Positions 48,690-64,000 of a DNA stretch of 64,000 nt are shown here, in pieces. The notes beneath the pieces are model-generated. The model was given only the letters and a program-made list of their open reading frames with translations, was not told where the DNA came from and did not search any database. Numbering within the stretch: position 1 is the first letter of the stretch; every line of letters begins with the position of its first letter. The position numbers and the translations under genes are program-made. The DNA comes from Somniosus microcephalus (taxonomy: Eukaryota): contig JBMRGM010000041.1 in the NCBI GenBank assembly GCA_052327205.1, positions 9,920,001 through 9,984,000 on the forward strand. Direction: 5' to 3'.

Positions 48690-49095
48690 GCCGCCGCTAA
48701 CCCGCTCGCTTGACCGACAGCCGCCTTTAGCCAATCCCCGCTCAGGGCGCGCCGCTTCGGCCAATCAGCGGAAGCGCGGCTCTCAGGCTTCGGCCAATCA
48801 GCGCGCCGGGAAGGCGGGTCCAACCTCACCGCTCCCTCTGCAGCCACGTGGGGTGGCGCCGCCTGATGGACAGCCCAATCTCGGCCAATCGGCTCCACGC
48901 CTCCGCGCAGGTTGGGCCAATCAGAGTCGGGAGGCGGGACCGGTGGTCACGTGGGGGCTGGCGCTGCGGCAGGCCTCGTGCGCCGACCGTTGCGGATGGG
49001 GAGGGGGAGGGGGAGGGCTTCCCGGCGGCCCCCGCGGTCGCGCCACTCTCGCAAGGGTTTTCGGGAATTGTGGTTCAGCGGCGATTTGTAGTTTA
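48690..49095. promoter_or_regulatory. CCT3 CpG-rich promoter
   Basis: six CCAAT boxes (48731-48921), two CACGTG E-boxes (~48845, ~48948), GC boxes, and an SBS-like site ACCACAATTCCCGAAAACCCTTGCG on minus (49050-49074). Confidence 0.8.
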
Positions 49096-52000
49096 ATGAG
49101 GAATTAAAGTTCAATGGGGAAATGTAGTTCAATGGGGAACTGAAGTTCAATGGGGAATTGTAGTTCAGCAGCGATTTGTAGTTCAATGGGGAATTAAAGT
49201 TCAATGGGGAATTGTAGTTCAATGGGGAATTAAAGTTCAATGGGGAAATGTAGTTCAATGGGAAATTGTAGTTCAATGGGGAATTGAAGTTCAATGGGGA
49301 ATTGAAGTTCAATGGGGAATTGTAGTTCAATGGGGAATTGAAGTTCAATGGGGAATTGAAGTTCAATGGGGAATTGTAGTTCAATGGGGAATTGTAGTTC
49401 AAGGGGAATTGTAGTTCAATGGGGAATTGTAGTTCAATGGGGAATTGTAGTTCAATGGGGAATTGTAGTTCAATGGGGAACTGTAGCTCAATGGGGAATT
49501 GTAGTTCAATGGGGAGTTGTAGTTCAATGGGGAATTGTAGTTCAATGGGAAATTGTAGATCAATGGGGAATTGAAGTTCAATGGGGAATTATAGTTCAAT
49601 GGGGAATTGTAGTTCAATGGGGAATTGTAGTTCAATGGGGAATTGTAGTTCAATGGGGAATTGAAGTTCAATGGGGAATTAAAGTTCAATGGGGAATTGT
49701 AGTTCAATGGGGAATTGTAGTTCAATGGGGAATTGTAGTTCAATGGGGAAGTGTAGTTCAATGGGGAATTGTAGTTCAATGGGGAATTGTAGTTCAATGG
49801 GGAATTGTAGTTCAATGGGGAAGTGTAGTTCAATGGTGAATTGTAGTTCAATGGGGAATTGTAGTTCAATGGGGAATTGTAGTTCAAGGGGAATTGTAGT
49901 TCAATGGGGAATTGTAGTTCAATGGGGAATTGTAGTTCAATGGGGAATTGTAGTTCAATGGGGAATTAAAGTTCAATGGGGAATTGTAGTTCAATGGGGA
50001 ATTCTGCTTCAATGGGGAATTGAAGTTCAATGGGGAATTGAAGTTCAATGGGGAATTAAAGTTAATGGGGAATTGTAGTTCAATGGGGAATTGAAGTTCA
50101 ATGGGGAATTGAAGTTCAATGGGGAATTGTAGTTCAATGGGGAATTGAAGTTCAATGGGGAATTGTGGTTCAATGGGGAATTGTGGTTCAATGGGGAATT
50201 GTAGTTCAATGGGGAATTGTAGTTCAATGGGGAAGTGTAGTTCAATGGGGAATTGTAGTTCAATGGGGAATTAAAGTTCAATGGGGAATTGTAGTTCAAT
50301 GGGGAATTCTGCTTCAATGGGGAATTGAAGTTCAATGGGGAATTGAAGTTCAATGGGGAATTAAAGTTAATGGGGAATTGTAGTTCAATGGGGAATTGAA
50401 GTTCAATGGGGAATTGTTGTTCAATGGGGAATTGAAGTTCAATGGGGAATTGAAGTTCAATGGGGAATTGTAGTTCAATGGGGAATTGTAGTTCAATGGG
50501 GAATTGTAGTTCAATGAGGAATTGTAGTTCAATGGGGAATTGTAGTTCAATGGGGAATTGCAGTTCAATGGGGAATTGTAGTTCAATGGGGAATTGTAGT
50601 TCAATGGGGAATTGTAGTTCAATGGGGAATTGAAGTTCAATGGGGAATTGAAGTTCAATGGGGAATTGTAGGTCAATGGGGAATTGTAGTTCAATGGGGA
50701 ATTGAAGTTCAATGGGGAATTGAAGTTCAATGGGGAATTGTAGTTCAATGGGGAATTGTAGTTCAATGGGGAATTGTAGTTCAATGGGGAAGTGTAGTTC
50801 AATGGGGAATTGTAGTTCATTGGGGAATTGTAGTTCAATGGGGAAGTGTAGTTCAATGGGGAATTGTAGTTCAATGGGGAATTGTAGTTCAATGGGGAAT
50901 TGTAGGTCAATGGGGAATTGTAGTTCAATGGGGAATTGAAGTTCAATGGGGAATTGAAGTTCAATGGGGAATTGTAGTTCAATGGGGAATTGTAGTTCAA
51001 TGGGGAATTGTAGTTCAATGGGGAATTGAAGTTCAATGGGAAATTGTAGTTCAATGGGGAATTGACGTTCAACGGGGAATTAAAGTTCAACGGGGAATTG
51101 TAGTTCAATGGGGAATTGTAGTTCAATGGGGAATTGTAGTTCAATGGGGAAGTGTAGTTCAATGGGGAAGTGTAGTTCAATGGGGAATTGTAGTTCATTG
51201 GGGAATTGTAGTTCAATGGGGAATTGTAGTTCAATGGGGAATTGAAGTTCAATGGGGAATTAAAGTTCAACGGGGAATTGTAGTCAAAATGGGGAATTGT
51301 AGTTCAATGGGGAAGTGTAGTTCAATGGGGAATTGTAGTTCAATGGGGAATTGTAGTTCAATGGGGAATTGTAGTTCAATGAGGAATTGTAGTTCAATGG
51401 GGAATTGTAGTTCAATGGGGAATTGTAGTTCAATGGGGAATTGTAGTTCAATGGGGAATTGAAGTTCAATGGGGAATTAAAGTTCAATGGGGAATTGTAG
51501 TTCAATGGGGAATTGTAGTTCAATGGGGAATTGTAGTTCAATGGGGAAGTGTAGTTCAATGGGGAATTGTAGTTCAATGGGGAATTGTAGTTCAATGGGG
51601 AATTGTAGTTCAATGGGGAATTGAAGTTCAATGGGGAAGTGTAGTTCAATGGGGAATTGTAGTTCAATGGGGAATTGTAGTTCAATGGGGAAGTGTAGTT
51701 CAATGGGGAAGTGTAGTTCAATGGGGAATTGTAGTTCATTGGGGAATTGTAGTTCAATGGGGAATTGTAGTTCAATGGGGAATTGTAGTTCAATGGGGAA
51801 TTGTAGGTCAATGGGGAATTGTAGTTCAATGGGGAATTGTAGTTTAATGGGGAATTGTAGTTTAATGGGGAATTGAAGTTCAATGGGGAATTGAAGTTCA
51901 ATGGGGAATTGTAGTTCAATGGGGAATTGTAGTTCAATGGAGAATTGTAGTTCAATGGGGAATTAAAGTTCAACGGGGAATTGTAGTTCAATGGGGAATT

Positions 52001-55000
52001 GTAGTTCAATGGGGAATTGTAGTTCAATGGGGAAGTGTAGTTCAATGGGGAAGTGTAGTTCAATGGGGAATTGTAGTTCATTGGGGAATTGTAGTTCAAT
52101 GGGGAATTGTAGTTCAATGGGGAATTGTAGTTCAATGGGGAATTGTAGGTCAATGGGGAATTGTAGTTCAATGGGGAATTGTAGTTTAATGGGGAATTGT
52201 AGTTTAATGGGGAATTGAAGTTCAATGGGGAATTGAAGTTCAATGGGGAATTGTAGTTCAATGGGGAATTGTAGTTCAATGGGGAATTGTAGTTCAATGG
52301 GGAATTGTAGTTCAATGGGGAATTGTAGTTCAATGGGGAATTGAAGTTCAATGGGGAATTGTAGTTCAATGGGGAATTGAAGTTCAATGGGGAAGTGTAG
52401 TTCAATGGGGAATTGTAGTTCAATGGGGAATTGTAGTTCAATGGGGAATTGTAGTTCAATGGGGAATTGAAGTTCAATGGGGAATTGTAGTTCAATGGGG
52501 AATTGTAGTTCAATGGGGAATTGTAGTTCAATGGGGAATTGTAGTTCAATGGGGAATTGAAGTTCAATGGGGAATTGTAGTTCAATGGGGAATTGACGTT
52601 CAACGGGGAATTAAAGTTCAACGGGGAATTGTAGTTCAATGGGGAATTGTAGTTCAATGGGGAATTGTAGTTCAATGGGGAAGTGTAGTTCAATGGGGAA
52701 GTGTAGTTCAATGGGGAATTGTAGTTCATTGGGGAATTGTAGTTCAATGGGGAATTGTAGTTCAATGGGGAATTGAAGTTCAATGGGGAATTAAAGTTCA
52801 ACGGGGAATTGTAGTCAAAATGGGGAATTGTAGTTCAATGGGGAAGTGTAGTTCAATGGGGAATTGTAGTTCAATGGGGAATTGTAGTTCAATGGGGAAT
52901 TGTAGTTCAATGAGGAATTGTAGTTCAATGGGGAATTGTAGTTCAATGGGGAATTGTAGTTCAATGGGGAATTGTAGTTCAATGGGGAATTGAAGTTCAA
53001 TGGGGAATTAAAGTTCAATGGGGAATTGTAGTTCAATGGGGAATTGTAGTTCAATGGGGAATTGTAGTTCAATGGGGAAGTGTAGTTCAATGGGGAATTG
53101 TAGTTCAATGGGGAATTGTAGTTCAATGGGGAATTGAAGTTCAATGGGGAAGTGTAGTTCAATGGGGAATTGTAGTTCAATGGGGAATTGTAGTTCAATG
53201 GGGAAGTGTAGTTCAATGGGGAAGTGTAGTTCAATGGGGAATTGTAGTTCAGTGGGGAATTGTAGTTCAATGGGGAATTGTAGTTCAATGGGGAATTGTA
53301 GTTCAATGGGGAATTGTAGGTCAATGGGGAATTGTAGTTCAATGGGGAATTGTAGTTTAATGGGGAATTGTAGTTTAATGGGGAATTGAAGTTCAATGGG
53401 GAATTGAAGTTCAATGGGGAATTGTAGTTCAATGGGGAATTGTAGTTCAATGGGGAATTGTAGTTCAATGGGGAATTAAAGTTCAACGGGGAATTGTAGT
53501 TCAATGGGGAATTGTAGTTCAATGGGGAATTGTAGTTCAATGGGGAAGTGTAGTTCAATGGGGAAGTGTAGTTCAATGGGGAATTGTAGTTCATTGGGGA
53601 ATTGTAGTTCAATGGGGAATTGTAGTTCAATGGGGAATTGTAGTTCAATGGGGAATTGTAGGTCAATGGGGAATTGTAGTTCAATGGGGAATTGTAGTTT
53701 AATGGGGAATTGTAGTTTAATGGGGAATTGAAGTTCAATGGGGAATTGAAGTTCAATGGGGAATTGTAGTTCAATGGGGAATTGTAGTTCAATGGGGAAT
53801 TGTAGTTCAATGGGGAATTGTAGTTCAATGGGGAATTGTAGTTCAATGGGGAATTGTAGTTCAATGGGGAATTGAAGTTCAATGGGGAATTGTAGTTCAA
53901 TGGGGAATTGAAGTTCAATGGGGAAGTGTAGTTCAATGGGGAATTGTAGTTCAATGGGGAATTGTAGTTCAATGGGGAATTGTAGTTCAATGGGGAATTG
54001 AAGTTCAATGGGGAATTGTAGTTCAATGGGGAATTGTAGTTCAATGGGGAATTGTAGTTCAATGGGGAATTGTAGTTCAATGGGGAATTGAAGTTCAATG
54101 GGGAATTGTAGTTCAATGGGGAATTGACGTTCAACGGGGAATTAAAGTTCAACGGGGAATTGTAGTTCAATGGGGAATTGTAGTTCAATGGGGAATTGTA
54201 GTTCAATGGGGAAGTGTAGTTCAATGGGGAAGTGTAGTTCAATGGGGAATTGTAGTTCATTGGGGAATTGTAGTTCAATGGGGAATTGTAGTTCAATGGG
54301 GAATTGAAGTTCAATGGGGAATTAAAGTTCAACGGGGAATTGTAGTCAAAATGGGGAATTGTAGTTCAATGGGGAAGTGTAGTTCAATGGGGAATTGTAG
54401 TTCAATGGGGAATTGTAGTTCAATGGGGAATTGTAGTTCAATGAGGAATTGTAGTTCAATGGGGAATTGTAGTTCAATGGGGAATTGTAGTTCAATGGGG
54501 AATTGTAGTTCAATGGGGAATTGAAGTTCAATGGGGAATTAAAGTTCAATGGGGAATTGTAGTTCAATGGGGAATTGTAGTTCAATGGGGAATTGTAGTT
54601 CAATGGGGAAGTGTAGTTCAATGGGGAATTGTAGTTCAATGGGGAATTGTAGTTCAATGGGGAATTGTAGTTCAATGGGGAATTGAAGTTCAATGGGGAA
54701 GTGTAGTTCAATGGGGAATTGTAGTTCAATGGGGAATTGAAGTTCAATGGGGAATTAAAGTTCAACGGGGAATTGTAGTTCAATGGGGAATTGTAATTCA
54801 ATGGGGAATTGTAGTTCAATGGGGAAGTGTAGTTCAATGGGGAATTGTAGTTCATTGGGGAATTGTAGTTCAATGGCGAAGTGTAGTTCAATGGGGAATT
54901 GTAGTTCAATGGGGAATTGTAGTTCAATGGGGAATTGTAGGTCAATGGGGAATTGAAGTTCAATGGGGAATTGAAGTTCAATGGGGAATTGAAGTTCACT

Positions 55001-55864
55001 GGGGAATTGTAGTTCAATGGGGAATTGTAGTTCAATGGGGAATTGTAGTTCAATGGGGAAGTGTAGTTCAATGGGAAATTGTAGTTCAATGGGAAATTGT
55101 AGTTCAATGGGGAATTGTAGTTCAATGGGGAATTGTGGTTCAATGGGGAATTGTTGTTCAATGGGGAATTGTAGTTTAATGGGGAATTGTAGTTTAATGG
55201 GGAATTGAAGTTCAATGGGGAATTGAAGTTCAATGGGGAATTGTAGTTCAATGGGGAATTGTAGTTCAATGGGGAATTGTAGTTCAATGGGGAAATGTAG
55301 TTCAATGGGGAATTGTAGTTCAATGGGGAATTGTAGTTCAATGGGGAATTGAAGTTCAATGGGGAATTGTAGTTCAATGGGGAATTGTAGTTCAATGGGG
55401 AATTGTAGTTCAATGGGGAATTGTAGGTCAATGGGAATTGTAGTTCAATGGGGAATTGAAGTTCAATGGGGAATTGAAGTTCAATGGGGAATTGAAGTTC
55501 AATGGGGAATTGTAGTTCAATGGGGAATTGTAGTTCAATGGGGAATTGTAGTTCAATGGGGAAGTGTAGTTCAAGGGGAATTGTAGTTCAGTGGGGAATT
55601 GTGGTTCAATGGGGAATTGTAATTCAATGGGGAATTGTAGTTCAATGGGGAATTGTAGGTCAATGGCGAATTGAAGTTCAATGGGGAATTGAAGTTCAAT
55701 GGGGAATTGTAGTTCAATGGGGAATTGTAGTTCAATGGGGAATTGTAGTTCAATGGGGAATTGTGGTTCAATGGGGAATTGTGGTTCAATGGGGAATTGT
55801 AGTTCAATGGGGAATTGAAGTTCAATGGGGAATTGTAGTTCAATGGGGAATTCTGTTTCAATGG
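49062..55864. repeat. 18-bp tandem array (AATGGGGAATTGTAGTTC)n, roughly 375 copies
   Basis: direct reading; variant units TGAAG, TAAAG, AAGTGT; 1531-bp higher-order period. Confidence 0.98.
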
Positions 55865-55920
55865 CTGGTTTTCATTGCATATGCACAAAAGTGAACTTGC
55901 ACTTATGTACACTTGCACCA

Positions 55921-56155
55921 TGTGGTAAACCACTGTTATACCTGTCTGTATGTGTATGTGTATTCCACTAGGTACAGGTCTGGACATGCCTCGGCTGACT
56001 CCTCCCACTATTCCAGGTATATAAGTGACTACCTCCCAGTCCCTTAGTATTCTGGACGGGTCGACCACTCGAGACTAGACCTTCATTCTTTAGTTCATAA
56101 AAGCCTGGTTGTTACTCGCTTAACCTCAGTCTTTTGAGTAATTGATGGCGCATCA
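55921..56155 (+). mobile_element. putative 5' LTR of the Gypsy element
   Basis: TG...CA ends, TATATAA at 56018, CATAAA (poly(A)-signal-like) at 56096, directly before gag; the second LTR is outside the window. Confidence 0.6.
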
Positions 56156-56179
56156 ATTTTATTAACTAAATTTTTTATA

Positions 56180-57271
56180 ATGGAGAAGATCCTCACACCA
56201 GCATGCCTGGACCTGGACAGTCGGGAAGCGGACACTTCCACCAAGTTTGCTCACTGGCTCATGTGCCTCGAGGCATTCCTGACTGCCTCCACTGCGGTCG
56301 TAACGGATGCGAACAAACTGTCTGTCCTGATCTCCAAGGTGAACCACCGAGTGTACTCAGTCATCCGGGATGCGACCTCGTACACAGCCGCCCTCCAGCT
56401 CCTCAAGACCCAGTACACGCGCCCTGTGAACGAAGTATACGCTCGGCACCTCCTGGGGAGTCGCAAAAAACAACCTGGGGAATCGACTGAGGAATACCTC
56501 CAAGCACTGTCCGTGCTTGGCCGGGCCTGTGGGTGTAAGGCGGTAACGTCCACTAAGTACACGGAGGAACTGATCCGGGATGCCTTCGTAGCGGGCCACA
56601 GGTCCAACTACACCCGACAGCGACTGCTGGAGCAGAGTGACCTCACCCTCGACAAAGCCTCTGAAATCGCACTAACGCTGGACGCAGCCTACCGGGGCAT
56701 GGATGCCTACTCCTCTGCACCGTGGACGCCGCGGGGAACGACAACCTGGGACATGGTAGGACAGCCCCATAGCACCGTGCCACCCCAGCCACAGCCCAAC
56801 AATGGCCCAACCACCGCAGCAGTGTCCCAAAGCCAGACAGCAGCATCCCAAGGCCAGAAATGCTACTTCTGTGGCCAGGCCAAACACCCCAGAGCGCGCT
56901 GCCCGGCGAAGACTGCGACCTGCTCGGGCTGCGGGAAAAAGGGACACTACGCTAGCGTCTGCAAGGCCAAAGCCACCCCGAACGCCAGCAGCGCCGCATG
57001 TGGGCCATGCGAGCCGCCATCTTGGGCCCCCAACAGTGCCGCGTGTGGGCCGTGCGAGCCGCCATCTTGGGCCTCCCCAGCCATGTGCGAACCACCGCAG
57101 CAGCAGCCAACTTGGACAACTCCAGCCACATGGGAATCATGGACGCCGCCATCTTGGACACCAGCCGGGACGCAGCAGGCCGCCAACCCCCCCCATCTGA
57201 TACCCGCAGCGACACACCGACCCCTACGCTGGCCTCTGTTACGCTGGACCAAACGAGGCCACACCAACTAG
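56180..57271 (+). CDS. Gypsy gag
   Basis: QPGESTEEYL, IRDAFVAG and two CX2CX4HX4C knuckles (CYFCGQAKHPRARC, CSGCGKKGHYASVC). Confidence 0.9.
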   Translation: MEKILTPACLDLDSREADTSTKFAHWLMCLEAFLTASTAVVTDANKLSVLISKVNHRVYSVIRDATSYTAALQLLKTQYTRPVNEVYARHLLGSRKKQPGESTEEYLQALSVLGRACGCKAVTSTKYTEELIRDAFVAGHRSNYTRQRLLEQSDLTLDKASEIALTLDAAYRGMDAYSSAPWTPRGTTTWDMVGQPHSTVPPQPQPNNGPTTAAVSQSQTAASQGQKCYFCGQAKHPRARCPAKTATCSGCGKKGHYASVCKAKATPNASSAACGPCEPPSWAPNSAACGPCEPPSWASPAMCEPPQQQPTWTTPATWESWTPPSWTPAGTQQAANPPHLIPAATHRPLRWPLLRWTKRGHTN

Positions 57272-59513
57272 CTCGGTCCAAAATGGATGTTAAGGTAAAC
57301 GGCCATGCAATAAACTGCCTTTTTGACTCCGGGAGCACAGAGAGCTTCATCCACCCTGACACGGTGCGGCGTTGCTCTCTCCCAGTCCTGCCTGCGCACC
57401 AGCGGATTTCTATGGCCGCCGAGTCCCAGTCAGCGGACATTGGCGGCTACTGCGTGGTGACACTAGTAGTAGACGGGACTGTGTTCAATAATTTTAAACT
57501 CCTGGTCCTGCCCCAACTTTGCGCTGCCGTTCTACTGGGGTTGGATTTCCAGTGCCACCTCAAAAGCGTTACGATGGCGTACGGTGGCCCCCTCCCCCCA
57601 CTCACAGTCCGCAGCCAGCAGCCTCCAAATTGCCCGCCGTGCACCAGATGCAACCTCTCCACACTCAGAGTCCCCCCCCCACTGTTTGCTAACCTCACCC
57701 CCGACTGTAAGCCCATCGCCACAAAGAGCAGGCGATACAGTGCCGGGGACAGGGTTTTCATCAAAACCGAAGTGGAGTGGCTCCTGAAGGAGGGGATTAT
57801 TGAGGGCAGCTCCAGCCCCTGGCGAGCCCAGGTTGTGGTCGTTAAGACCGGCGAGAAACAACGCCTGGTCATCGACTACAGCCAAACAATAAACCGCTAC
57901 ACCCTGCTGGACGCCTACCCACTCCCCCGCATAGCTGACATGGTCAACCAGATCGCGCAGTACCGCGTCTTTTTGACCATTGACCTGAAATCAGCGTACC
58001 ACCAGCTCCCCATCCGCCCCGAAGACCACCAGTATACTGCTTTTGAGGCAAACGGCCGCCTCTATCACTTCCTTAGGGTTCCCTTTGGCGTTACCAACGG
58101 GGTCTCCGTCTTCCAAAGGGAGATGGACCGGATGGTCGATCAAAACGCGCTGCAGGCCACTTTCCCTTACCTAGACAATGTGACCATCTGCGGCCATGAC
58201 TTGCAGGACCATGACGCAAACCTCGAGAAATTCCTCCGCACCGCCCAACTCCTGAACCTGACATATAACAAGGAGAAGTGCATATTCCGCACAGACCACC
58301 TCGCCATCCTTGGCTGTGTTGTGGAACACGGGGTCATCGGTCCCGACCCGGACCGGATGCGTCCCCTTATGGAACTCCCACTGCCCCACTGCCTAAAAGC
58401 TCTGAAGAGGTGCCTAGGTTTTTTTTCCTACTACGCCCAGTGGGTCCCCTACTATGCAGACAAAGCCCGTCCGCTGATCAAATCCACCTCTTTTCCCCTG
58501 ATGGCAGAGGCCCGCTCGGCCTTCCACCGTATCAAGGAGGACATTGCCAAAGCCACCATGCACGCAGTGGACGAATCCATCCCCTTCCAGGTGGAAAGCG
58601 ATGCGTCCGACTTTGCTCTGGCCGCCACCCTTAATCAAGCGGGGAGACCTGTGGCATTCTTCTCACGAACCCTCCAGGGCCCGGAGACCAGACACTCCGC
58701 GGTCGAGAAGGAGGCCCAGGCTATTGTGGAGGCTGTGTGTCATTGGAGGCACTACCTGGCCGGAAAACGATTTACCCTGCTCACTGACCAGCGTTCAGTT
58801 GCTTTTATGTTCAACAACAAGCAGAGGGGCAAAATCAAAAATGACAAGATCTTGAGGTGGAGAATCGAACTTTCCACCTACAATTACGAGATCTTGTACC
58901 GGCCTAGGAAGCTCAATGAACCCCCAGATGCCCTATCGCGTGGCACCTGCGCCAGCGCGCAGATCGATAGGCTGAGGGCCCTCCACAATGACCTCTGCCA
59001 CCCGGGGGTCACCAGGTTTTTCCACTTCATCAAGGCCCGCAACCTGCCTTACTCCATCGAGGAGGTCAGGACCATGACCAAGAACTGCCAAGTCTGCGCT
59101 GAGTGCAAACCGCACTTTTATAGACCAGACAGAGCCCACCTGATAAAAGCCACTCGCCCTTTCGAACGCCTGAGCGTCGATTTTAAAGGGCCTCTCCCCT
59201 CCTCCGACCGCAATGTGTACTTCCTCAACATCATTGACGAGTACTCCCTTTTCCCGTTCGCTATCCCCTGCCCGGACATGACCAGTGCCACGGTCATTAA
59301 ATGTCTGAACAGCCTCTTCACCCTGTTCGGTTTCCCCAGCTATATCCATAGCGGCCGGGGCTCATCGTTTATGAGCGACGAACTCCGCCAGTACCTGCTC
59401 GCTAGGGGTATAGCCACAAGCAGGACCACCAGTTACAACCCCCGGGGGAACGGACAGGTGGAAAGAGAGAATGCAACAGTTTGGAAGGCCGCCCTACTAG
59501 CCTTAAAGTCTAG
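56998..59513 (+). CDS. Gypsy pol (protease-RT-RNase H-integrase), interrupted
   Basis: CLFDSGST, RLVIDY, IDLKSAYHQ, PFG, YLDN, ESDAS, LTDQ, H-H-C-C, VDFKGP, NGQVER; -1 frame relative to gag, true start of the pol frame uncertain. Confidence 0.92.
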
Positions 59514-60013
59514 GGGCTAGATTTTCAGTTGCTTGCGCCAGCAGTTAGCGCCTTAAGAGAAGTGATTTCCGGGTGCTATGCGTGTAGCGCCCGGGCGCAG
59601 CGCAGTTTGCGCCTCGCCCCACATTAAGTTGGCCGTTAGCGCCGGCGCAAAGTTTAGCGCCCGCCCGGATGCGCGCGCAGAAAATGGCGTCACATCCTCG
59701 TGCAACGCCCTTTGGCCGCCCCGATTCCAAACTTCAGTCGGACCGCCCCATTGTGCGGCTGGCGGCCGGAGCGTTTGAAAAAAGGAATGCAACACAACCA
59801 GCGCGGGCCCCGGGGGGCGCAAATTAAAGGGGACGTGCCCTCCAGTATAAAGGCCAGCCATTTTTCAGCAAACACTCTAGTGCAACGCATTTCTGGACAC
59901 ACAACAAGGAGGATAGCTAACTGGTTTCAAGCGGCAACAGCTCAGGTATTTTTGGACTCAGGCCAGAGCGCTGCAAGTGGCCTTTTGGAAATTTGAGTGT
60001 TTGCCAGGATTTG

Positions 60014-61161
60014 ATGGGGGTTGCATGGGGTGCCAACGCGGAGCTGCAGCGCCATGTCCGTAGGGCTCGCAGACGCATTGTGAGAGGGGCAGCCCTGGCT
60101 AGAGGCAGAGGGGGCTACAGGCGTCGGCCACGTAGGCCTTACCCAGTCAGGCTATACCGCCAGCAGCGCTCCTACCTAAACATGAGTGCCGCGCGATGTG
60201 TTAGAAGGCTCCGATTCCGAAAGGAGGTGATTGCAGAGATCTGCCACCTGCTTCGCAGAGATCTGCGGCCAAAGCTCAGGTGCAGGACGTCTCTGTCGGT
60301 GGAAGTGAAGGTGACGGTGGCATTGAACTTCTATGCCACCGGCTCCTTCCAATCCGCTGCTGGGGACATAGCAAACATCTCCCAGTACGGCGCGCATCGC
60401 TGCATCCGCCAGGTGACCGAAGCACTGTTCAGAAGGAGAAGCCAATTCATCTCCTTCCCCATGGCCCTGGAGAGCCAGCATCAGCGCGCATTGGGATTTG
60501 CCAGACTCGGGGACTTCCCCTTGGTGCAGGGCGCCATTGACTGTACGCATGTGGCTTTGCGGGCCCCTCTGGAGCATGGCGAGCAGTATCGCAACAGGAA
60601 GGGCTACCATTCTCTGAATGTGCAGCTGGTGTGTGACCACAAGCAGCGCATCATGGCTGTCAATGCCAGCTTCCCAGGCAGCAGCCACGATGCCTTTATC
60701 CTGCGGCAGAGTACTGTGCATGACATGTTCAAGGCACAGCCTCCCCCAAGAGGATGGCTACTCGGGGACAAAGGCTATCCTTTGTGTACCTGGCTCATGA
60801 CCCCGCTCCGCGCGCCCAGGACCGCTGCTGAAGAGGCCTACAACGAGAGCCATCAAACCACCCGCAACATCATCGAGCAAACTATTGGGGTCCTCAAGCA
60901 GCAGTTCCGCTGCCTTGATCGCTCCGGAGGAGCTCTCCAGTATTCGCCGGACTGGGTCTCCCAATTTGTGGTAGTTTGCTGCATGCTACACAACCTGGCT
61001 ATCCGCAGGACTCAGGCACTGCCACCTGACTTGGAGCAGCACCTCAGGAGGAGGAGCAGGAGGAGCATGAGGAGGAGGAGGAGGTGCAGGAGTACGTTCC
61101 CAGGAGGGAGCGACCAGGGCCAAGGGCCGCGCGACGCCACCTTATTACACGGTACTTCTAA
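60014..61161 (+). CDS. Harbinger DDE transposase (HARBI1-like) with a probable 1-bp deletion near 61030
   Basis: LNFYATGSFQ, GAIDCTH, NRKGYHSLNVQLVCD, PGSSHDA, LLGDKGY, RNIIEQTIG, CCMLHN; the acidic tail ...EEEEEVQE...RRHLITRYF* lies in the -1 frame. Confidence 0.9.
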
Positions 61162-61524
61162 GCCCCCTGTCAGGGAATGCCTTGGGGCCATGAGGGAAGA
61201 TGAATGCAGCCGCTTCGCAAGCCCTCAGCCGGTGAAGCCAACAAACACTAAGAAGAACAACCATGGAGACTGCATGAATAAAGATAAATTTTTATTACAC
61301 AAAAATGAAAAACCCTTCCCACATGAATCCCCAAAAACAATCAACGGGCCCCACAAAAAGCCCAACAAACGACTCACTCCCACAAACTGGGGAGGAGTCA
61401 CTCCACATTTGTACAACCCGGGCCTCAACCTCGGCCTAACGCAAAAAAAAAGCCCACGAACCAAACAACCATGGGCAAAAGAAAGATGGCCACCGCCATA
61501 TAAAACGAAAGCTGGCCACACCCT

Positions 61525-62570
61525 CTACTGAGTGGCCCGCGAGGGCGAGACCTTGCCCAGCCTTTTGCCTCCCCTGCCCGGCCTGCTGCTCCTTCGCAAG
61601 CTCTGCCAAGTGGCTGCTGCGAGGCTGGGGGAAGGCTCCTGAGGCTCAGATGTCCTTCCGCCAGATGCCGCTGGGGGGCGGCCTACACGGCCTTTGGGCC
61701 TCGAGGGGCCGTCTGCTGAGTGGCGCACCTGAGCCTGGCCAACATCAGCTCCAGCCGCTTGCCGTTGACGCCCCAGTGGGGGAATGGCGGCGACGGATGG
61801 CGCAATGTGGGCCAGCTGGCGTCTGGGATGGGCTGGCTGGTGCTGTGGCGCGCTGGCACTCGGCCGGCCCCGCACTGCAGGATCCACAACAATCAGCCGA
61901 GGGGCGGCTCGCTGGGATGCTCCAGCGCGGCGGCTGCCCTGGCGATGCCTGCCTGAGACAGCGCGTGTGGCAGCAGTGAGTGCCCCTGTTGTCCTGGTGT
62001 GCGCCCGCATCACACCCGCCAGGGTCTTGACGGCATCAGTCAGCATGCGGCCACTCGCGGCAGTTGCTGCCCCGAACTCGCGCACACTGGTCGCCAGCGA
62101 CTCGATGGCCTCAGGCATGCGCCCCACCATGCTCATGAGCTCCGTGTGGCGCCGGTCCGAATCCTCGGCCATCTTATCCAGCTTCCGCACCTCCTCCGAG
62201 GTGAAGGTGTCCGGACTGGAGTCACGACTCTCCCACTGGGGAGGAGGGGGCCGAACTAGGGGAACCTTGCCACGTTGGTGGCGGCGAGTGTGCCGATCAG
62301 CAGCACTCCCCTCTGATCCTTCCCCCCTTTGGGGGGAAGGCCGCGGGCCACGCGCATGGCTCCTGGGTGGCTGGACGCCACTGGTCCCAGAAGCTGCATT
62401 CCCCTGCGACAGTTCCTCCAGGCACTCATCCAGTGAGGACGTGTCAAGCCTTTCGTCCTCTCCGGCGGGACCTGAGTGTTCCCCCGATGGTCCGGCTTGC
62501 TCCTCCTCCTCCTCCTCCTCCTGCTCGGAGGGGCTGTCACTGGCAGCTTCAGGGTCCTGGTCGTCACCAG
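61525..62570 (-). CDS. Harbinger Myb/SANT-like protein exon 3
   Basis: TTTCAG acceptor, phase 1, open frame with an acidic stretch running into ORF 61525-62190 and the stop. Confidence 0.75.
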
Positions 62571-62729
62571 CTGAAAGCAGGAATGCACAAGAGTAGCTTC
62601 AGAGTGAGGAGACGGCGTCAGCGAGGGAGTTAGGACTGGTGGCATTCAGCGCATTGGTGGGACAGTGGCAAAGGAGGTAGCTCGGATGCGCAAGTGCGAC
62701 GCGAGAGGGCCAAAAGGCGAGGTCCTTAC

Positions 62730-62892
62730 CATTGCCGGGCAGTGGAGGGTCGGCTACTCCGCACGCTGTGCGCACAATCAGACGGGCTCCCATGAGCACA
62801 CACACGCGCTCCTCCAGCCGAGTGAGCTTCTGCAGCTTTGCGCGGCCTCCCCTGGCCCTGGCACGGGCCTGGCGATTATACGCAACTTTAGC
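62730..62892 (-). CDS. Harbinger Myb/SANT-like protein exon 2
   Basis: AKVAYNRQARARARGGRAKLQKLTRLEERV; CAG/GTAAGG. Confidence 0.8.
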
Positions 62893-63123
62893 CTGCAAGA
62901 GAAAGGACGGGCTGTAAGTGCGCAGTGTAGCCCTGATGTAGTGTGCACTGCCTCCCATGGTGGAATAGCTGGGCCAGAGTGTAGAGTGCAGAATGGCCAA
63001 TTGATGCTCATGACTGTCCCAATGCTGCTGGCTGAGGGCTGGCCATTAGGACTTTCAGCTCCCTTTGCCCATCATGTCAGGTGTACATGCAAGAATGAGG
63101 AGGAGACTGGAAAGGGTACTCAC

Positions 63124-63369
63124 CCTGACAATCCTGGTCAGGTCATTGTATTTTTTACGACATTGTTTGTGGGTCCTGGGGGCATCGCCGGTGAACGTCA
63201 CCCTTTGGGCGATCTGCTTCCAGGCTCTGGTGTAGTCGTGGTGGTTCGGATTCCTCCCACTCTCTGGGAACAAGATCCTGCGCCTCTGCTCCAGAGCTGT
63301 GACCATTATGTCCAGATCACCCTCTGAGAAGCGCAGGGCACGCTCACGGGCCTTCTCTGGTGTTGCCAT
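63124..63369 (-). CDS. Harbinger Myb/SANT-like protein exon 1
   Basis: MATPEKARERALRFSEGDL...AWKQIAQRV...RTHKQCRKKYNDL, a trihelix/Myb-SANT pattern; AGG|GTGAGT donor. Confidence 0.85.
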
Positions 63370-63726
63370 GACTCCCTGGGGCTGAGCAGCAGTGTTGAGG
63401 CCTCTTTGCAAGGCTGCAGTGTGCAGGGCGTGGCAGCAGACCAATTCGTCCCTTCCCCCTTTAAGAGCTGGTCGGCGCCACGGGGTCTGCTGTCAGTCAA
63501 AAAATGACCGCATCCGCGCTGCGCCCCGCCTGGGCGCTATCCCTCTGGACCGCCGGCTTAGCACCTAAAGATAGTAGTGGAACGCCTCTTTTAGCGCTCC
63601 AACAACCTCTTAGGGCGAAGCCACTGAATTTCCGGCAACGGGGCGCTACTTTGGGGCGGGCGCTAACTTCGGGCGGGCGCTAAGGTTAGCGCCCCAAAAC
63701 TGGCTATACTGAAATTCTAGGCCTAG

Positions 63727-64000
63727 GGGCCTTCCGACCTCCCGCTGGCAGGAGGTGCTCCCCGATGCGCTCCACTCGATTCGGTCACTGCTCTGCACTG
63801 CCACCAATGCCACCCCTCACGAGAAAATGTTTGTCTTCCCAAGGAAGTCCACATCGGGGACAGCGTTACCGCCATGGCTGACGTCCCCAGGGCCGGTACT
63901 ACTGAGAAGACACGTGAGGACCAATAAAACGGACCCCCTGGTCAAGAGGGTCGACCTCCTCCACGCCAACCCCCAGTACGCTTACATTGCGTACCCGGAC
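63727..64000 (+). mobile_element. Gypsy integrase C-terminal part, resuming after the Harbinger
   Basis: removing the insertion and one TSD restores ALKSRGLPTSRWQEVLPDALHSIRSLLCTATNATPHE...LLHANPQYAYIAYPD. Confidence 0.9.

Follow-up and report, generated by a model that had tools for sequence, protein, structure and literature searches.

How does a Gypsy retrotransposon start reverse transcription when no tRNA-binding site follows its long terminal repeat (LTR)? The question is raised by an element in a 64,000-nucleotide stretch of Somniosus microcephalus DNA (hereafter the window), in which the sequence just past the 5' LTR is complementary to a segment of that same LTR. The features that bear on it are the following.

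55916–55920, + strand: target-site duplication CACCA, 5 bp, with a second copy past the 3' LTR
55921–56155, + strand: 5' LTR, 235 bp, TG...CA, delimited by comparison with the element's own 3' LTR
56001–56006 and 56018–56024, + strand: GC-box-like hexamer and TATA box, a putative promoter
56044–56048, + strand: initiator-like TTAGT, transcription start region predicted from sequence, 28 nt past the TATA box
56089–56102, + strand: predicted self-primer, the LTR segment complementary to the post-LTR 14-mer, overlapping the poly(A) hexamer at 56096–56101
56103–56106, + strand: GCCT immediately 3' of the duplex segment, a candidate cleavage-site context
56140–56158, + strand: U5-IR-like 8-bp hairpin spanning the LTR end, predicted by folding and competing with the first two duplex pairs
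56157–56170, + strand: putative primer-binding site (PBS) without TGG, 1 nt (A, 56156) past the LTR end
56180–57271, + strand: gag, with two Cys/His knuckles recognized by eye and no Pfam match
56956–59520, + strand: pol frame with protease, reverse transcriptase (RT; YLDN motif), RNase H and integrase core, truncated by the Harbinger insertion
59514–63723, no strand assigned: nested PIF/Harbinger transposon in the integrase, 4,210 bp
63724–64000, + strand: rest of the integrase, running on to position 1261 of the adjoining locus L031, without a chromodomain

The element is of the Ty3/gypsy type, with TG...CA LTRs, a target duplication, a polypurine tract and the order protease-RT-RNase H-integrase. 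The nearest solved structure to its RT is that of Ty3 (E 1e-44, best of 12), and its nearest named protein relatives come from rays and sharks, followed by corals, anemones and a damselfly. The gag and pol frames differ, and they overlap at 56956–57271; several homologs of the invertebrate type are single open frames. The nested Harbinger has terminal inverted repeats and a TAG duplication, and encodes DDE_Tnp_4 on the + strand and Myb/SANT on the - strand. Upstream, an 18-bp unit forms an array of some 376 copies (~48900–55860) that stops about 60 bp before the element.

The 3' LTR lies just beyond the window (L031:1305-1539, G000:C41:9984305-9984539), directly preceded by the polypurine tract and AA; it is also 235 bp long and differs from the 5' LTR at 4 positions. 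It ends in GCATCA and contains TGGCGC, and CACCA flanks the element on both sides. Thus, the LTR ends at 56155 and TGGCGC is internal to it. The preliminary description of this DNA was right that no TGG-starting PBS follows: downstream of the 5' LTR the first TGG occurs only at +26, within the gag start codon. An Rfam search of 55800–56400 returned no tRNA match, its sole match being a chance CRISPR-repeat (E 0.33).

What does follow the LTR is the complement of 56089–56102: we confirmed both the coordinates and the sequences of the pairing that had been described (13/14 positions with 56157–56170), and matches of 13/14 arose in 0 of 20,000 shuffled LTRs. The 3' LTR was also as predicted, with A at the mismatched site and GCATCA at its end. 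The mismatch, which had been put forward as a meaningful feature, proved to be private to this copy. The window 5' LTR has C at 56096, where the family state is A. Among 5' LTRs found with a gag query, A was present in 29/30 and C in the window copy only; among 3' LTRs found with 3' internal DNA, A was present in 29/30 and 1/30 was interrupted (each sample being 30 taken from the 40 matches listed). Exact counts over 6.4 Gb of genome gave 13,625 junctions with A and 35 with C, against 0 for a reversed-pattern control, and all seven of the other C copies that we examined had A in the 3' LTR. The C at 56096 is therefore a mutation acquired after insertion, and the family duplex is a perfect 14 bp over AATAAA. 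A programmed asymmetry between 5' and 3' LTRs was considered and rejected as an artefact of search bias: a search that skips common words had given almost exclusively C copies. When an intact copy was folded, pair probabilities reached at least 0.89 at duplex positions 3–13; the window leader folded no better than its shuffles (z = -0.11).

Is the pairing kept when the letters change? Four sister subfamilies of the shark genome read TTTA, TTTT, TCTT and TGTT at LTR positions 14–11 and TAAA, AAAA, AAGA and AACA in the PBS, and more distant families of the same genome form 13-bp and 17-bp duplexes, each with its own matched letters. In 81 distinct 5' ends, a pool of biased and unbiased sets partly chosen by the 10-nt core or the C variant, positions 11–14 were all paired in 66 and positions 11–13 in 6, and 9 had an internal mismatch; the 66 fully paired ends comprised five different matched LTR/PBS combinations. 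The complementarity, first noticed in a single copy, is thus kept across copies and related families, its two sides covarying in sister subfamilies and distant relatives alike.

The same relationship extends well beyond this genome. From an RT alignment we took the best 80 of 518 metagenome loci; a gag start could be located in 42, and 36 were tested once 6 that were too close to the end of a contig had been set aside. An LTR complement of at least 10 nt starting after the CA was present in 27/36 loci and 16/20 families from these best 80 of 518, compared with 21/3,600 shuffles and 0/144 windows inside gag; the complement was shorter than 10 nt in 9/36 loci and 4/20 families. Its offset from the CA was 1 nt in 25 of the 27 positive loci, and the LTR boundary was backed by a second LTR in 6 families. 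The RT motif across the 36 loci was YxDN in 28 and YLDD in 4, and was unread in 4. When viral contigs were searched for relatives, 50 pattern matches were obtained and 0 confirmed.

We compared 25 correctly parsed representatives, which were selected for the presence of a duplex, so that pairing at positions 1–10 follows from selection. At least two Watson-Crick pair types occurred at 9 of the 11 core positions, and position 12 was paired in 23/25 and position 13 in 21/25, with four pair types each (these per-position counts omit L127, a mis-parsed row of that set). Pairing of at least 13/14 was reached by own LTR/PBS pairs in 22/26 rows and by cross-family pairs in 11/650, figures that still include a mis-parsed row. 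The duplexes span 11–18 bp with loops of 30–65 nt; they extend beyond 11 bp in 23/25 and measure exactly 11 bp in two families. Around these variable letters the frame is constant: (i) AG at -11/-10 in 18/25 and AAA at the end; and (ii) one spacer base, usually A (23/25), and RCC after the duplex in 23/25. An exact stem of at least 4 bp from the RCC into U5 was found in 11/25 rows, versus 1.9 expected, with one row of the set (L126) mis-parsed; the stem of the window subfamily has 3 bp only. Taken together, the alignments show a real, clade-wide and covarying structure, which is most likely a self-priming site.

What is known of such sites? In LTR elements the primer has to bind no more than a few bases from where the LTR ends (PMC5006619), and self-priming, shown for Tf1, has been predicted for chromovirus relatives and one plant copia lineage. 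In the available passages of the sources, the systems on record are Tf1/sushi, Tcn1 and TAR copia only (PMC6317226, PMC3601003, PMC6934838, PMC5443660, PMC10085805, PMC13524379, PMC6238403, PMC11042837, PMC5006619, PMC7175516, PMC4600332). The shark element shares with Tf1/Tf2 of S. pombe, Tj1 of S. japonicus and the Tf1/sushi chromoviruses the Ty3/gypsy domain order and the lack of a tRNA PBS (PMC7175516, PMC10085805, PMC4600332). With the Tf1/sushi group, as far as the excerpted accounts describe it, it also shares an LTR-adjacent PBS complementary to an LTR segment, an 11-nt core and, in part of the clade, extra stems; the RCC stem would echo the three-duplex 'pretzel' of Tf1 (PMC10085805). 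Unlike Tf1/sushi, the shark clade has no chromodomain, carries the RT motif YxDN and usually forms a duplex of 13–18 bp. The Chromo profile had no match at E 0.05 in the C-terminal piece of the window element or in 5 full-length homologs, and precomputed domains included no chromodomain among the 120 listed homologs. Thus, the element works like Tf1/sushi but lies outside that group, being without a chromodomain.

Tcn1 chromoviruses and plant TAR copia elements have been predicted to self-prime by the same criterion, an LTR complement of at least 10 bp starting 0–5 bp past the LTR (PMC6317226). They belong to other lineages and hosts, and to the criterion as excerpted the shark clade adds compensatory change across families. 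Skipper of dictyostelids is a Gypsy element in which, as in the shark element, a pyrimidine-rich stretch replaces TGG (PMC5006619); it differs in having a chromodomain, and the available text of that report states that a complementary region in its LTRs was not found (PMC5006619). Our literature search, confined to openly available papers, found no account of self-priming in a chromodomain-less animal Gypsy clade, and a search on the YLDN motif gave no match. The data are best read as self-priming, independent of tRNA, in an animal Gypsy clade that lacks a chromodomain and has a YLDN/YMDN reverse transcriptase.

How would priming proceed? We consider it likely that pairing between the LTR and the post-LTR segment replaces a tRNA as the source of the reverse-transcription primer. 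The RNA is predicted to be cut where the pairing ends, by the RNase H that the element encodes. This reading follows from the only conserved partner that we found at the priming position, the element's own LTR segment, whose 3' end points toward the LTR end. Priming from the LTR, as first suggested, finds good support in sequence comparison, namely in the fixed 1-nt position and the compensatory changes. By analogy with Tf1, the genomic RNA would fold back on itself, closing a 53-nt loop by pairing of the PBS with the part of R that ends in AAUAAAA. RNase H would then cut within the A-run that precedes the conserved RCC, leaving a free 3'-OH. Minus-strand strong-stop DNA of about 54 nt would be made and would jump to the 3' copy of R, downstream of the poly(A) hexamer. 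As a side benefit, the duplex may additionally conceal the 5' poly(A) signal.

Where in the transcript does the primer lie? In Tf1, bases 1–11 of the RNA serve as primer and RNase H cuts between bases 11 and 12 (PMC7175516). The clade of the shark element differs from the Tf1 arrangement, as the sources partly describe it: the LTR partner usually shares bases with the poly(A) hexamer and probably lies inside R. A GC box with a TATA-like motif stands 83–98 nt upstream of the duplex end in 10/10 representative copies from three family groups; at the shark spacing, no TATA was found in the invertebrate-type loci. Because of this spacing, the promoter motifs favor, with somewhat less assurance than self-priming itself, a transcription start about 55–65 nt upstream of the duplex end in the shark families, which would place the primer inside R instead of in the first 11 nt. 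RNA reads are available from two runs of a related species: on locus L093, sense-only depth climbs from about position 1466 (88, 119, 150 and 195 in run X7) without a rise in antisense depth, in ordinary RNA-seq of another species with mixed subfamilies and no pile-up of starts or ends in the LTR. The 11-nt core of L093 begins at 1500, some 35 nt past this rise. The conserved GC box and TATA, together with this weak ramp, suggest a primer about 40 nt inside R, unlike that of Tf1. Further along the same locus (L093:1700-1759), subfamily-D gag reads were nearly one-stranded in run X7 (~700 vs 0–5), consistent with element-driven transcription in the related species.

Alternatively, the clade could be fully Tf1-like: the conserved AG, 11 nt ahead of the duplex end, would be the transcription start and the first 11 nt the primer. 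Pairing at positions 12–18 would then have another role, for example in strand transfer, as a means of capture by the 3' LTR copy. The AG at -11/-10 is initiator-like and matches the 11-nt primer of Tf1 (PMC7175516), and two families have a duplex of exactly that length. Against this stand the 23/25 duplexes that exceed 11 bp and the four pair types at each of positions 12 and 13, a TATA too distant, at 83–98 nt upstream, for a start at -11, the sense RNA of L093, which increases before the core, and a T instead of A at -11 in three shark subfamilies. We regard such a start as unlikely, and the internal primer as the better account of the promoter spacing.

The primer might also have the same sequence but come from another molecule, namely the 3' copy of R, a co-packaged RNA or a short R transcript that was polyadenylated too early, and then be copied into the PBS, much as Tf1 cDNA copies its own primer into a PBS strand (PMC11042837). 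This possibility draws on 212 copies with a subfamily-B LTR and the mismatching subfamily-D base at PBS position 13, versus 22 reciprocal copies (raw counts); that 212 copies tolerate this mismatch also counts against the main reading. Internal sequence was of the B type in 7/9 of the B-LTR/D-base copies examined, and both PBS states occurred in two B sublineages. The 212 copies could owe this state to a PBS rewritten by primer copying or to compensatory change that is still incomplete. Incomplete compensatory change and ordinary recombination account for the same data, however; the reciprocal class numbers only those 22, the trans-priming test found 0 copies in which a D-type PBS follows an A-type LTR end, and the D base at PBS position 13 was scattered over a poorly resolved tree of 46 copies with two long-branch rows. 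A primer from another molecule thus appears improbable, more so than a Tf1-like start. Two copies on contig C40 (L028 and L029, G000:C40) are duplicates of one insertion and differ at PBS position 13.

Recombinants offer a separate view of the cut. Suppose that strong-stop DNA stops where the RNA is cut and is then transferred from one molecule to another: both LTRs of a recombinant should in that case change subfamily immediately 3' of the primer. The 13 candidate recombinants did not bear out this detailed model, as 0/13 had a crossover at that point in both LTRs. In L232 it was present in the 5' LTR alone, and in three copies (L230, L233 and L234) the crossover lay upstream of the primer. 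Of the remainder, two D elements carried a changed base in each LTR, and seven B elements had a D-like primer segment confined to the 5' LTR; among these seven, five differed by one base and two by two bases. The one-base changes are background-level mutation and the two-base changes are conversion or recombination. In L223 and L225, both subfamily-B elements, a subfamily-D patch with two diagnostic bases covers the primer segment of the 5' LTR only.

Could the duplex serve solely to conceal the 5' poly(A) signal? In retroviruses such as HIV-1, AAUAAA is occluded in a 5' poly(A) hairpin and the primer is still a tRNA. In the shark element the hexamer pairs instead with sequence beyond the LTR, an arrangement that can conceal the 5' copy alone. 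AATAAA or ATTAAA overlaps the duplex in 19/25 representatives and is absent from it in 6/25: in L125 AATAAA lies outside the duplex, and L147 has GAAGA/TCTTC within it. Because of these six, masking of the 5' poly(A) signal, which the preliminary description had proposed along with self-priming, is plausible for the window family and is not the general reason for the duplex in the clade; it is at most secondary, likely a side effect where the hexamer happens to be covered. That masking is the only role of the duplex, with a tRNA fragment or another host RNA as primer, is a reading that the 19 covered hexamers allow and for which internal tRNA fragments, said to prime some copia lineages (PMC6317226), provide a precedent. 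Yet masking would not require an offset of exactly 1 nt, and from family to family the PBS follows the LTR of its own family, as no fixed host RNA could; the same family-specific covariation argues against half-tRNA priming. We therefore give masking as sole function very little credence. Finally, the proposal that TGGCGCATCA, which starts with TGG, is a tRNA PBS following an earlier LTR end can safely be set aside, since this sequence is internal to both LTRs of the element and to family-wide 3' LTRs, all ending in CATCA, and sister subfamilies read TAGCGC at its position.

Self-priming through the element's own LTR would thereby extend to an abundant and separate group, a chromodomain-less animal clade with more than 13,000 5' junctions in one vertebrate genome. 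Annotation tools that require a tRNA site would overlook such elements, and tRNA-derived small RNAs presumably could not block them at the PBS. An internal primer, if true, would imply an RNase H geometry other than that of Tf1 and a coupling of priming to 3'-end control, and the conserved pattern AG...AAA|RCC provides a precise, testable site. A more far-reaching scenario is tentative, and we lean against it as a whole: in an animal Gypsy clade reaching from corals and insects to sharks, self-priming may have evolved independently of Tf1/sushi, the primer being cut from mid-R at the poly(A) signal, so that one duplex would silence premature 5' polyadenylation and then start reverse transcription, and the primer, copied back into the PBS, would automatically keep the two halves matched.

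One further locus (L076, G000:C7:121918093-121921393) holds tandem elements with one common LTR: internal sequence found with the 3' end of the window subfamily runs into an LTR of another subfamily, which is followed by a PBS and gag. This arrangement resembles the single-LTR tandems described for Tf1 in the excerpted text of PMC11042837.
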